DNA of 64,000 bases from Tagaea sp. (GTDB lineage Bacteria; Pseudomonadota; Alphaproteobacteria; CACIAM-22H2). A program made the position numbers and the translations under genes. Shown here piece by piece: positions 36,422-44,472 of the stretch. Each line of letters starts with the position of its first letter. Position 1 is the first letter of the stretch. The stretch is taken from positions 512,001 to 576,000 of the forward strand of contig CBDIIB010000004.1 in the NCBI GenBank assembly GCA_965279525.1, read 5' to 3'. The notes under the pieces are model-generated. The model was given only the letters and a program-made list of their open reading frames with translations. It searched no databases and had not been told where the DNA came from.

Positions 36422-37072
36422 TCAATAGTCCTGCGACTCGCGGGTGATCCGGCGGATCTCGCGCTGGACCATCCGCTCGACGAGATCGGGCAGATACTGG
36501 TCGAGCCACGCCTTCAGGATCGGACGCAGTTCGGCGCGGACGAGATCCTCGATCGTGAGATCCGAGTTTCCGAGCAGCAGGTTACGCGGCACGCGGGCCT
36601 GGAGACCCTGCAACGCGTCGGAAGCCTGACGCGCCGTGTCGTCGGACATCAGGCGCCGCGGCTCCTCGGCCATGATCGGCGGCGGCTTGTCCACCACGTT
36701 GGTGAGCTCGAGAACGTCGTCCATCTCCGGTTCCGGCATGGGCATGCGCGGACGCGGCGGCGGAGGGGGCGGCGGCGGCGGGGGTGGTGGAGGCGGCGGA
36801 GGCGCCTCCATCATCATCGGCTCGGGTTCAGGCTCCGGTTCAGGCTCCGGCTCCGCCATAGGTGGCGGTGGCGGCGGAGGTGCTGCAGCAGGCGGAGGCG
36901 GCGGGGGTGGCGGCGGAGGGGGTGGTGGCGGAGGAGGCGGGGGTGCTGCTTCGGCGGCGGCAGGCGCCGCTGGCGGCGCCTTACCGGCGTCTCCATCTTC
37001 CGAAATAATTCGACGGATGGAGGCGAGGATCTCCTCCATCGACGGTTCTTGTTGGTTCTTTGGGTCCGTCAT
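36422..37072 (-). CDS. popZ: Polar organizing protein PopZ (DUF2497)
   Basis: N-terminal EPSMEEILASIRRIISED, DDVLELT, and C-terminal TIEDLVRAELRPILKAWLDQYLPDLVERMVQREI; lies between tolC and valS. Confidence 0.95.
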   Translation of the reverse strand: MTDPKNQQEPSMEEILASIRRIISEDGDAGKAPPAAPAAAEAAPPPPPPPPPPPPPPPPPPAAAPPPPPPPMAEPEPEPEPEPEPMMMEAPPPPPPPPPPPPPPPPRPRMPMPEPEMDDVLELTNVVDKPPPIMAEEPRRLMSDDTARQASDALQGLQARVPRNLLLGNSDLTIEDLVRAELRPILKAWLDQYLPDLVERMVQREIRRITRESQDY

Positions 37073-41618: not shown

Positions 41619-43160
41619 ATGAATACGGATTCTCCTTACGATCTTCTCGTCATCGGTGGCGGCGTCAACGGCTGCGGCATCGCGCGCGATGCCGCAGGCC
41701 GCGGCCTTTCGGTCCTGCTTGTCGAACAGAACGACCTTGCCTCGGCGACGTCATCTGCTTCGACCAAGCTGATCCATGGCGGGCTTCGCTATCTCGAGTT
41801 CTACGAGTTCCGGCTGGTCCGCGAGGCGCTGTCCGAGCGTGACGTGCTGCTCGACGGGGCGCCGCACATCATGTGGCCGATGCGCTTCGTGCTGCCGTAC
41901 GATCGAAGCCAGCGCCCGGCCTGGATGATCCGCGCGGGCCTTTTCCTCTACGACCATCTCGGCTGGGTTCCGGGCCGGAAATCGAAACTGCCGGGCTCGC
42001 ACAAGGTCGATCTGCCCGGAAACCCGTATGGCCGGGGATTGCGCGCCGATATCGGCGTCGGCTTCGTCTATTCGGACGGTTGGGTCGACGATGCGCGTCT
42101 GGTCGCGCTGGCGGCGCGCCATGCCGCGGATCTCGGCGCGGACATTCGCGTACGCACGCAGGCGACGTCGGCCAGGCGCGAAGGCGGCCTCTGGCATGTG
42201 TCGCTCTCGGACCGCATTTCGGGACAGACGGCCGAGGTCAAGGCGCATGCGGTCGTGAATGCCGCAGGGCCCTGGGTCATGCAGACGCTGTCCGGCATCC
42301 TCGGCGCCAATGCGCCGGCGTCGGTCAAGCTGGTCAAGGGCAGCCACATTGTCGTTCCGCGCCAGTACGAGGGCGAGCACGCTTTCATCCTGCAGAACGA
42401 AGACCGGCGCATCGTCTTCGTCATTCCCTACCAGGGGCAGTTCACGCTGATCGGCACGACCGAGGTGGCGCATGACGGCGATCCTGGCCGCGTCTCGATC
42501 ACGTCGGCCGAGACGGAATATCTTTGCACGGCCGTCAGCCGGTTTCTTGCAAAGCCCGTTTCGCCGTCCGATGTCGTGTGGAGCTATTCGGGCGTGCGGC
42601 CGCTCTACGATGACGGCGCCGACAATGCGACCGCGACGACGCGCGACTATGTGCTGTCGCTCGATGACGGCGGCGGCCGTGCGCCGGCGCTGTCGATCTT
42701 CGGCGGCAAGATCACGACGTTCCGCAGACTTGCCGAGCACGCGCTGGAAAAACTTGCCCCGTTCTTCCCGAAGATGAAGCCTGCCTGGACCGCCGGCGCG
42801 CGTCTGCCCGGGGGCGAACTTGACGGTGTCGACGGCAATTTCGAGCGTTTCACCGGCGCGCTGGCCGCACGGTTTCCGTTCGTGCCGCCCGAACATCTTC
42901 ATGCGATGGCACGTCGACAGGGCGGCCGCGTGTTCCGCTTTCTCGAAGGGAAGTCAAAACTCGAAGATCTCGGTGCGCATTTCGGCGCAGGTTTGTATGC
43001 CGCCGAAGTCGATCTCATGGTTGGCGAGGAATGGGCGCGGACGGCGAACGACATCCTGTTCCGCCGCTCGAAGCTGGGCCTGCATATCGGACTGGCGGAC
43101 CAGGCCGCACTCGGGAGCTATCTCGCCGACAAGCACGGTCTGGGACGTGTCCTGGCCTGA
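41619..43160 (+). CDS. glpD: Aerobic glycerol-3-phosphate dehydrogenase
   Basis: DLLVIGGGVNG, TSSASTKLIHGGLRYLE, YSGVRPL and GGKITTFR motifs. Confidence 0.97.
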   Translation: MNTDSPYDLLVIGGGVNGCGIARDAAGRGLSVLLVEQNDLASATSSASTKLIHGGLRYLEFYEFRLVREALSERDVLLDGAPHIMWPMRFVLPYDRSQRPAWMIRAGLFLYDHLGWVPGRKSKLPGSHKVDLPGNPYGRGLRADIGVGFVYSDGWVDDARLVALAARHAADLGADIRVRTQATSARREGGLWHVSLSDRISGQTAEVKAHAVVNAAGPWVMQTLSGILGANAPASVKLVKGSHIVVPRQYEGEHAFILQNEDRRIVFVIPYQGQFTLIGTTEVAHDGDPGRVSITSAETEYLCTAVSRFLAKPVSPSDVVWSYSGVRPLYDDGADNATATTRDYVLSLDDGGGRAPALSIFGGKITTFRRLAEHALEKLAPFFPKMKPAWTAGARLPGGELDGVDGNFERFTGALAARFPFVPPEHLHAMARRQGGRVFRFLEGKSKLEDLGAHFGAGLYAAEVDLMVGEEWARTANDILFRRSKLGLHIGLADQAALGSYLADKHGLGRVLA

Positions 43161-43185
43161 AAAATAGAAGTCAGTCTGAAAATGC

Positions 43186-43212
43186 AAAAGGCCACGTCCA
43201 TTCGACGTGGCC
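43186..43212 (-). terminator. Intrinsic terminator for the minus-strand microprotein gene
   Basis: GGCCACGTC-N5-GACGTGGCC 9-bp stem followed on the minus strand by TTTTGCATTTT. Confidence 0.7.
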
Positions 43213-43235
43213 CTGATTTCCGGTCGTTCCGGAAT

Positions 43236-43379
43236 TCAGTGCTTTGTGTGCGGCAGCAGCCCGTCTTCGACCAGGATCTTCTTGAGGCTGGCGAGCACTT
43301 CGGCGATGTCCGGCGTATCGGACTTCGTGCTGCTGCCCTTGCGGCGGCTGGTCGGGAGCGATGCAATCTTGCGGGGCAT
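43236..43379 (-). CDS. 47-aa microprotein containing a PopZ helix-1-like motif
   Basis: MPRKIASLPTSRRKGSSTKSDTPDIAEVLASLKKILVEDGLLPHTKH; 41 of 47 codons end in G/C; own terminator. Confidence 0.7.
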   Translation of the reverse strand: MPRKIASLPTSRRKGSSTKSDTPDIAEVLASLKKILVEDGLLPHTKH

Positions 43380-43508
43380 GATTTTCACGTGCTTCCGGGG
43401 TTTGTCTTGTAGTCTGATAACTGAATATCGCATTCGGCTTTGCAAATTGCAAGATCAATTTTTCTAATGGTAGAGACGATCGCTTGACGCGTATCCTACA
43501 AAAATATA

Positions 43509-43539
43509 GAACAAACCGAGAATTGAACAAAAGACGAAC
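43509..43539 (+). promoter_or_regulatory. Tandem alphaproteobacterial LexA (SOS) boxes
   Basis: GAAC-AAACCGA-GAAT (43509-43523) and GAAC-AAAAGAC-GAAC (43525-43539), overlapping the -10 of TTGACG-N17-TAGAAC (43484-43512). Confidence 0.85.
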
Positions 43540-43554
43540 GCCAAGGAGCCGCCA

Positions 43555-44472
43555 ATGTTCGAAGCGACTTTCTCGCCCCCGCCGATCGATGGTTTCTTTC
43601 CGGAACATATCGTGCACGAAAGCTTTGCGCGAATGCCGCGGCTTGGTCTTGCCAGCCTGCCGAGCCGGAACCAGTCGAGCTTCGGAAAGATCCGCAACCC
43701 CTTGATCAGAAGCACCATGGCAACCCAATCCGGCATCCTGCGTCGCCCCGCCTCGACCACGGTCCAGGAACTGAAGGCCCGTCTGGCGGCTTTCGGCGAA
43801 CGCGTGCCGCCCGGCCGCGGTCCGCTTGCCTTCGGGATCCCGGCGATCGACACGGCCCTGCCTTGGTCGGGCCTGCCACGCGGCGCACTGCACGAGATCG
43901 CCGGCGCTTCGAACGACGGGGCCGCCGCGGGCTTCGCGACCGCCCTGCTCGCCCGGCTCGCCGGCGACGGCCCGGTGCTGTGGATCGCGCGCCGCCCCGA
44001 TCTGAGTGCGGCCGGTCTCGCGGCACTCGGGCTTGAGCCTGCGCGCCTGCTCATCGTCAATGCGCCCAAGCGCGCCGATGCGCTGTGGGCTTTCGAAGAA
44101 GCGCTGCGCAACCCCGCACTTGCCGGAGCGGTCGCCGAAATCGACGGCGTCGATCTCACGCAGTCGCGCCGCCTGCAGCTTGCCGCCGAGATGGGTGGCA
44201 CGACGGCCCTGCTGCTGCGCCCGCCGGGCGAACTCGACCAGGCGAGTGCCGCGCGCACGCGCTGGCGTGCCGCCGCCCTTCCCGCCGACGCCACGGATGG
44301 CGAGAGCCGCCGCTGGCGCCTGACGCTCGCGCGCGCGCAAGGCGGCACGCCGGGCGAATGGAACATCGAACACCGTCGCGACGGATGGACACTTGCCGAT
44401 GACGAGCGGCCGGCGATTTCTCTCGATCTTCCTGCCGCATCTGCCGACCGACCGGTGCGCGCGGCAGGCTGA
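43555..44472 (+). CDS. imuA: ImuA (RecA/SulA-like)
   Basis: GLPRGALHEI, GPVLWI, ALWAFEEALR and SRRLQLAAE motifs; start at 43555 (AAGGAG RBS) or 43717. Confidence 0.92.
   Translation: MFEATFSPPPIDGFFPEHIVHESFARMPRLGLASLPSRNQSSFGKIRNPLIRSTMATQSGILRRPASTTVQELKARLAAFGERVPPGRGPLAFGIPAIDTALPWSGLPRGALHEIAGASNDGAAAGFATALLARLAGDGPVLWIARRPDLSAAGLAALGLEPARLLIVNAPKRADALWAFEEALRNPALAGAVAEIDGVDLTQSRRLQLAAEMGGTTALLLRPPGELDQASAARTRWRAAALPADATDGESRRWRLTLARAQGGTPGEWNIEHRRDGWTLADDERPAISLDLPAASADRPVRAAG

Follow-up and report, generated by a model that had tools for sequence, protein, structure and literature searches.

Does the short interval between imuA and glpD in Tagaea, a genus of Rhodospirillaceae, contain a protein-coding gene, and if so, is its product connected with the polar scaffold PopZ, with the SOS response, or with neither? 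PopZ is a model bacterial scaffold and condensate, and to our knowledge all known recruitment of its clients runs via its helix H1. We addressed this question in a window of 64,000 nucleotides (the whole stretch of DNA analysed), for which a sequence-only reading had proposed that a microprotein resembling H1 is encoded back to back with the LexA-boxed imuA and acts as a decoy in a DNA-damage checkpoint. The locus comprises the following elements.

43236..43379, minus strand: coding sequence of the microprotein, 47 codons plus TGA (stop included)
43314..43379, minus strand: residues 1-22, a basic tail predicted to be disordered, with a conserved P-[RP]-K motif (pLDDT 56-61, no secondary structure)
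43260..43313, minus strand: residues 23-40, an H1-like amphipathic helix with a proline N-cap and an E-D-G C-cap
43239..43259, minus strand: residues 41-47, the family-specific tail L-L-P-x-x-x-H, in which P43 and H47 are invariant and for which PopZ has no counterpart
43188..43214, minus strand: intrinsic terminator hairpin (11-bp stem with 7 G-C pairs, loop of 5, then the T-rich TTTTGCATTTTC)
43424..43452, minus strand: candidate promoter (-35 TTGCAA at 43452-43447, 17-nt spacer, -10 GATATT at 43429-43424)
43440..43452, without strand: palindrome TTGCA-N3-TGCAA spanning the -35 and the spacer, a candidate operator
43484..43539, plus strand: imuA promoter, given as neighbouring context (TTGACG at 43484-43489, 17 nt, TAGAAC at 43507-43512)
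43509-43523 and 43525-43539: LexA-type boxes (ATTC-N7-GTTC and GTTC-N7-GTTC, respectively), 130-160 nt from the ATG of the microprotein
36422-37072, minus strand: popZ (PF10691), 6.2 kb from the microprotein gene and on the same strand
36992..37045, minus strand: PopZ helix H1, within popZ, the helix that the microprotein resembles

The minus-strand ORF lies where the sequence-only reading had placed it, with G or C at the third position in 41 of its 47 codons; its translation, MPRKIASLPTSRRKGSSTKSDTPDIAEVLASLKKILVEDGLLPHTKH, begins with MPRK and ends with HTKH. Searching 40 related genomes with tblastn, we recovered intact, stop-free orthologues sited by imuA in 19 of the 20 other genomes of the genus, with identities to the window's protein of 83-96% in eight matches and 45-53% in eleven. 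The one genome of the genus without an orthologue (G010) is 74% complete, its imuA was likewise not found, and the weak match that it gave is a chance one. The 20 family sequences align at 47-54 residues and have K4, P23, L29, K33, L36, E38, P43 and H47 in common without exception, with I35, D39, G40, L41 and L42 nearly invariant (L41 and L42 at 90% or more). Variable sites are distributed 12/9/33 over the three codon positions of the whole ORF, with a dN/dS of 0.18 in the nine closest orthologues, in which the N-terminal half has a dN/dS of 0.43; codons 23-47 show a distribution of 3/1/17, so that 17 of their 21 variable sites fall on position 3, with a dN/dS of about 0.02.

That the ORF arose by chance in GC-rich intergenic DNA, or marks a small RNA there, would be in line with the Shine-Dalgarno sequence, which is weak or absent, and with the lack of any model for the protein in the family databases (Pfam, scanned at E <= 1 with both the 47-aa and the 69-aa reading of the ORF, gave 0 families, and no NCBIfam family matches). 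However, the 3/1/17 pattern with its dN/dS of 0.02, a reading frame that is open in all 20 sequences down to 37% identity, and the absence of an Rfam match within 43000-43700 speak against a non-coding origin, which we consider wholly improbable. We conclude that the ORF encodes a protein and is under selection; frame conservation, synteny with imuA and dN/dS, by which the earlier reading had suggested that it be checked, all bear this out. The gene represents a new family. Gene callers list it as 'hypothetical protein' in public MAG annotations, and the ESM Atlas contains the exact sequence, for which it gave no usable feature match. A search of PDB sequences with the family alignment yielded three weak matches (E >= 0.037; a fimbrial subunit and YopM among them), which were taken as chance.

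The family is restricted to Tagaea-type genomes. A profile built from the 20 sequences, searched against 1,835,955,588 proteins, retrieved six representatives at E <= 0.001, all with lengths of 47-65 residues and with matches that span the entire profile. Scanning one genome per species (185,579 species) with a pattern confirmed 16 microprotein loci, eight of them in assemblies titled Tagaea sp. and the remainder under loose or doubtful titles (e.g., Rhodospirillales bacterium), including one cyanobacterial culture assembly. Two of these loci, L074 and L078, come from assemblies labelled a cyanobacterial culture (Halotia wernerae) and an Asaia MAG, and are probably contigs of a Tagaea-like co-inhabitant or mislabelled bins. 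By tblastn, four genera of the same family and 16 other genomes of the class gave no convincing match (best E 0.25). In the genomes of the four sister genera no match was better than E 0.5; imuA is present in all four, and the 200-900 nt upstream of it that were inspected contain no microprotein-like ORF. Since the family is limited to one genus, it is not a general part of PopZ biology. Within the genus, imuA (starting at 43555 in the window; NCBIfam ImuA_translesion, E 2e-22, under the curated cut-off) is divergent from the microprotein gene in 20 of 20 loci, and glpD (ending at 43160) is convergent with it in 17 of 20. These loci are not independent observations, because synteny inside one genus is inherited.

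The microprotein gene is transcribed. A short contig lies on it in each of four RNA runs (environmental metatranscriptomes from four studies), in which 5-9% of the words sampled from 42600-44400 were present: 43242-43399 in run X17 (158 nt, zero differences), 43229-43406 in X21, 43179-43372 in X20 and 43196-43472 in X16, all contigs of a kind that shows neither strand nor level, from libraries in which DNA can occur. In X17, X20 and X21 the rest of the 1801-nt stretch, with imuA and glpD, is uncovered, apart from a single diverged piece of 38 nt in glpD in X17. We gave X16 no weight as a separate transcript, because a 5.2-kb contig from a relative, reaching from glpD to imuA, is also present in that run. 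Upstream, the X17 contig ends at 43399 and the X21 contig at 43406, consistent with transcription starting near 43417, where the -10 would place it. Both the terminator and the TTGCAA-N17-GATATT promoter that had been attributed to the gene are present, and we place the terminator at 43188-43214. A consensus scanner found 0 promoters because the candidate matches 8 of 12 positions and the threshold of the scanner is 9; the layout [C/T]TTGCA-N16-octamer is found at the same position in 20 of 20 family loci. A heat-shock (sigma-32) promoter was also considered: hsp20 and groES read CTTGAT/CTTGAC...CCATATT-like with similar spacing, but the microprotein -35 reads TTGCA[AT], and the idea was dropped because sigma-32 and sigma-70 are not separable by sequence.

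The palindrome over the -35 occurs at all 20 family loci, in 15 exactly and in five with TGCGA. Across 21 genomes of the genus the exact palindrome has 80 sites, against 13 of the reversed control pattern; its spacer is mostly A/T, and several species share sites at orthologous positions (sites away from the microprotein gene include G000 C2:126223, C3:17294, C4:813435 and C5:1297703, and loci L101-L120). Genes located 40-130 nt downstream of the palindrome include an MCP, two further HAMP-domain sensors, flagellin, PAS_5, DUF2336 and GAF; unrelated genes (GH114, a PhnD-like and a GpmI-like protein) are also found near such sites. The motifs of CtrA, FNR, Fur/Mur, Irr, NsrR, sigma-54 and DriD were compared with the palindrome and none fits. 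Presumably, the palindrome is the candidate operator of an undescribed regulator, and the genes around it provide a lead to a regulon that leans to chemotaxis, motility and signalling and away from SOS control. Near a palindrome site we also observed a conserved small ORF of 75-77 aa (MFRNK.DGFK.GDRF...; G000 C2:125756-125983 and L101:879-1109, both on the minus strand), which matches no Pfam family, is separated from the site by 92-240 nt and is divergent from a GH114 gene.

Is the microprotein then part of the SOS response? In the checkpoint that had been proposed, LexA would repress the microprotein together with imuABC, and damage would lead to segregation or cell-cycle factors being drawn off the pole. 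The back-to-back arrangement with a LexA-boxed imuA, seen in 20 of 20 loci, is what favours this proposal. The boxes, however, overlap the -10 and the start region of imuA, run toward the imuA ATG and stop 56 bp short of the microprotein -35, a gap of at least 56 bp at this locus. The lexA promoter of the same genome (G000 C3, ~576805-577000) reads TTGACG-N17-TAGAAC with GAAC-N7-GAAC over its -10; as the lexA and imuA promoters have one layout, imuA is credibly SOS-controlled. At imuA and at lexA a LexA box starts inside the -10, imuA having two tandem boxes, and recA carries GAAC-N7-GTAC. The distance from the start of the nearer box to the microprotein ATG varies by lineage between 140 and 198 nt, the GTTC-N7-GTTC box is absent from the microprotein promoter (43424-43452), where another palindrome is conserved instead, and in three of the four RNA runs the microprotein gene is covered without imuA. 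We therefore regard the checkpoint as very unlikely. The proposed link to DNA damage is not supported by these observations. The reservation once attached to it, namely that boxes about 130 bp from the ATG perhaps serve imuA alone, fits their overlap with the imuA -10, as at lexA.

AlphaFold2 predicts a single helix at residues 25-38 (pLDDT 88-95), preceded by a tail with a charge of +6/-0 over residues 1-20, in which K4 is invariant. The protein has no hydrophobic membrane segment, its longest uncharged stretch being located inside the amphipathic helix. The DUF2497 assembly domain, for which the PopZ of the window scores 7.4e-23 in Pfam, is absent, and so is an acidic proline-rich linker, the sole disordered part of the microprotein being basic. 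As it has neither of these parts, the microprotein is not a PopZ, in agreement with the description by which it lacks the C-terminal assembly domain and has a basic tail in place of the acidic linker.

The likeness to PopZ lies in the helix. Without gaps, PDIAEVLASLKKILVEDG of the microprotein aligns with PSMEEILASIRRIISEDG of PopZ (36992-37045) with nine of 18 positions identical, as had been reported. In the PopZ of the class this helix follows the motif E-P-[ST]-M-E-E-I-L-A-S-I-R-R-I-I-S-E-D at 30 of 30 loci sampled class-wide. When the family HMM was run against the six-frame translation of the genome (76,676 ORFs of 20 residues or more), the best non-self match was PopZ residues 13-30, numbered along the open frame (E 1.2); conversely, an HMM of the PopZ N-terminus from 30 class-wide sequences returned the microprotein as its best non-self match in the same genome (E 3.5), a comparison with genomic ORFs of the kind that the sequence-only reading had put forward. 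Profile-profile alignment with hhalign gave a probability of 92% and P values of 7.7e-7 and 6.3e-7 over 18-23 columns, with a score of 29.9 against 8.0 +/- 2.0 (maximum 17.7) in column shuffles, none of 300 of which reached the real score, and against 7.1 for the reversed family alignment. The three sub-lineages taken singly align in the same register (P 3.6e-7, 5.2e-5 and 5.0e-5), and the features in common with H1 are the proline N-cap, the hydrophobic face, L-A-S, the basic residue K33 and the E-D-G cap. Judged from these alignments, the likeness of the microprotein helix to H1 is beyond chance.

The helix is nevertheless under looser constraint than H1: it varies across the sub-lineages at E27, A30, S31, K34 and V37, the equivalents of which are nearly invariant in H1 class-wide. 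The retention of the equivalents of the client-binding residues E12, I13, I17 and R19 is thus weaker than had been stated, E27 being replaced by V/M/G and K34 by E/D within the family. The profile search of 1.84 billion proteins did not return PopZ at E <= 0.001. Searching proteins of 20-88 residues with the profile of the PopZ N-terminus gave 1192 matches at E <= 0.01; among the best 120 of these, the named ones are partial DUF2497/PopZ proteins (two are 'uncharacterized protein') and most are nameless. A further ORF of the genome, G000 C3:17285-17443 on the plus strand (PTVADILSAIRL), was the third-best match of the PopZ-N profile (E 5.2) and was judged to be chance, given that it coincides with a palindrome site and, on the opposite strand, with the beginning of a PAS_5 gene.

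We suspect that the microprotein gene is a partial duplicate of the 5' end of the nearby popZ, which sequence comparison makes probable and does not prove: as the likeness is confined to 18-23 columns, with E of about 1-3 per genome, common descent is not separable from convergence. The sub-lineage nearest to the window and several members of the second have a candidate popZ frame of about 210-250 aa at a distance of 6-11 kb on the same strand, whose match to the microprotein covers residues ~12-40 of the latter and whose counterpart in the window is popZ. Two third-sub-lineage genomes, G003 and G005, have the corresponding frame about 65 kb away on the opposite strand.

What might a free helix of this kind do? 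[quoted passage not shown] Members of two candidate client families, DUF1465/RcdA and HPTransfase/ChpT, are encoded in the genome. As a soluble H1-type ligand, the free microprotein might occupy those client surfaces that normally dock on H1 of PopZ, and recruitment of the clients to the pole would then be lowered or re-timed. We take the gene to be transcribed from a sigma-70-like promoter of its own, with the conserved palindrome, the presumed operator, overlapping the -35, and to be outside the control of the LexA boxes of the imuA promoter. We propose such competition for H1's sites on clients as a tentative reading, possible and yet still short of probable, against which it counts that the likeness covers 18-23 columns with E of about 1-3 in single genomes, that the helix is much less constrained than H1, that the L-L-P...H tail is conserved without a PopZ counterpart, and that the family is limited to one genus. 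The conserved end hints at a partner separate from those of PopZ.

Two other readings have to be weighed against competition for clients. In dilute-phase Caulobacter PopZ, the available portion of PMC12999525 reports, H1 folds back on the oligomerisation domain and suppresses contacts between filaments. The microprotein helix could take this site on the assembly domain in trans while the basic tail screens the acidic linker, with the effect that PopZ condensation would be altered or PopZ's own H1 exposed. The retained hydrophobic face of H1 would suit this, and so would a tail of +6/-0 opposite a linker that in the window's PopZ is rich in proline and glutamate; but the contact between H1 and the domain is known in cis alone and for Caulobacter PopZ alone, and we find binding to PopZ itself doubtful. 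A complex prediction of the microprotein with three copies of the C-terminal 100 residues of PopZ, run without controls, scored 0.00 against a mark of 0.32, a value that we weighed neither for nor against binding. Alternatively, the helix may be a generic amphipathic one that has converged on H1 and serves a partner unrelated to PopZ, e.g., the ImuA-ImuB-DnaE2 mutasome or a chemotaxis or motility component linked to the palindrome. The shortness of the similarity (E of about 1-3 per genome), the family's own conserved E-D-G-L-L-P...H end, the strict adjacency to imuA in 20 of 20 loci and the recurrence of the palindrome near MCP, HAMP, flagellin and PAS genes all agree with convergence. On the other hand, the microprotein and PopZ are reciprocal best non-self matches among 76,676 ORFs, the proline N-cap, L-A-S, the basic pair and the E-D-G cap align ungapped in one register in all three sub-lineages, and the adjacency was inherited within one genus, so that 20 syntenic loci do not count as 20 observations. 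In view of the shortness of the helix and of the conserved end peculiar to the family, we hold a PopZ-unrelated partner to be about as likely as competition for sites on clients. Returning to the microprotein as an H1 relative, the full reading, i.e., a trans-acting copy of H1 that is controlled by the regulator of the palindrome and competes with PopZ H1 for either the clients or the assembly domain of PopZ, appears somewhat unlikely as a whole and is offered as a working model derived from sequence.

If the microprotein binds the partners of H1, it would be a natural H1-only protein, a competitor peptide shaped by evolution, and its variation would map the residues of H1 that matter, with the hydrophobic face, K33 and E-D-G kept and others free to change. 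With it one could ask whether titration of docking sites is a means by which cells control a condensate, and the microProtein principle would gain a clear bacterial example. On the full reading, the microprotein would further be a diffusible, naturally occurring regulator of a polar condensate in bacteria, acting in step with the assembly of polar organelles. The scope of this significance is one little-studied genus and a predicted function. A stand-alone H1 protein is not described in the open-access full-text literature that we searched, which matches the statement in the sequence-only reading that no such protein was known to it.

Among known systems, PopZ (PF10691, DUF2497) is closest: the two proteins have a helix of 18-23 residues in the same register, and popZ is located 6.2 kb away on the same strand. 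The microprotein differs from PopZ in lacking both DUF2497 and the acidic proline-rich linker, in having a basic tail and an L-L-P...H end, and in a helix that varies among species; H1 shows hardly any variation class-wide. SidA and DidA of Caulobacter are small damage-induced division inhibitors and membrane proteins. The Tagaea protein resembles them in being small and in having been proposed earlier as a DNA-damage checkpoint factor, and differs in that it has no membrane segment and its promoter no LexA box. Truncated FtsZ paralogues of Hyphomicrobiales, for which a role in tuning FtsZ function has been proposed in the available part of PMC13732431, are likewise shortened paralogues of a core alphaproteobacterial cell-organisation protein; their parent protein is another one, their domains are much larger, and they are not known to be linked to PopZ. 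Plant microProteins, as far as the accessible text of PMC7534434 describes them, are small single-domain relatives of the interaction domain of a larger protein, with which competition is possible. The Tagaea protein is bacterial and its role as a competitor is predicted from sequence, but with 47-54 aa, one helix and a relationship to H1, it has the make-up of a microProtein, a small single-domain relative of an interaction domain.
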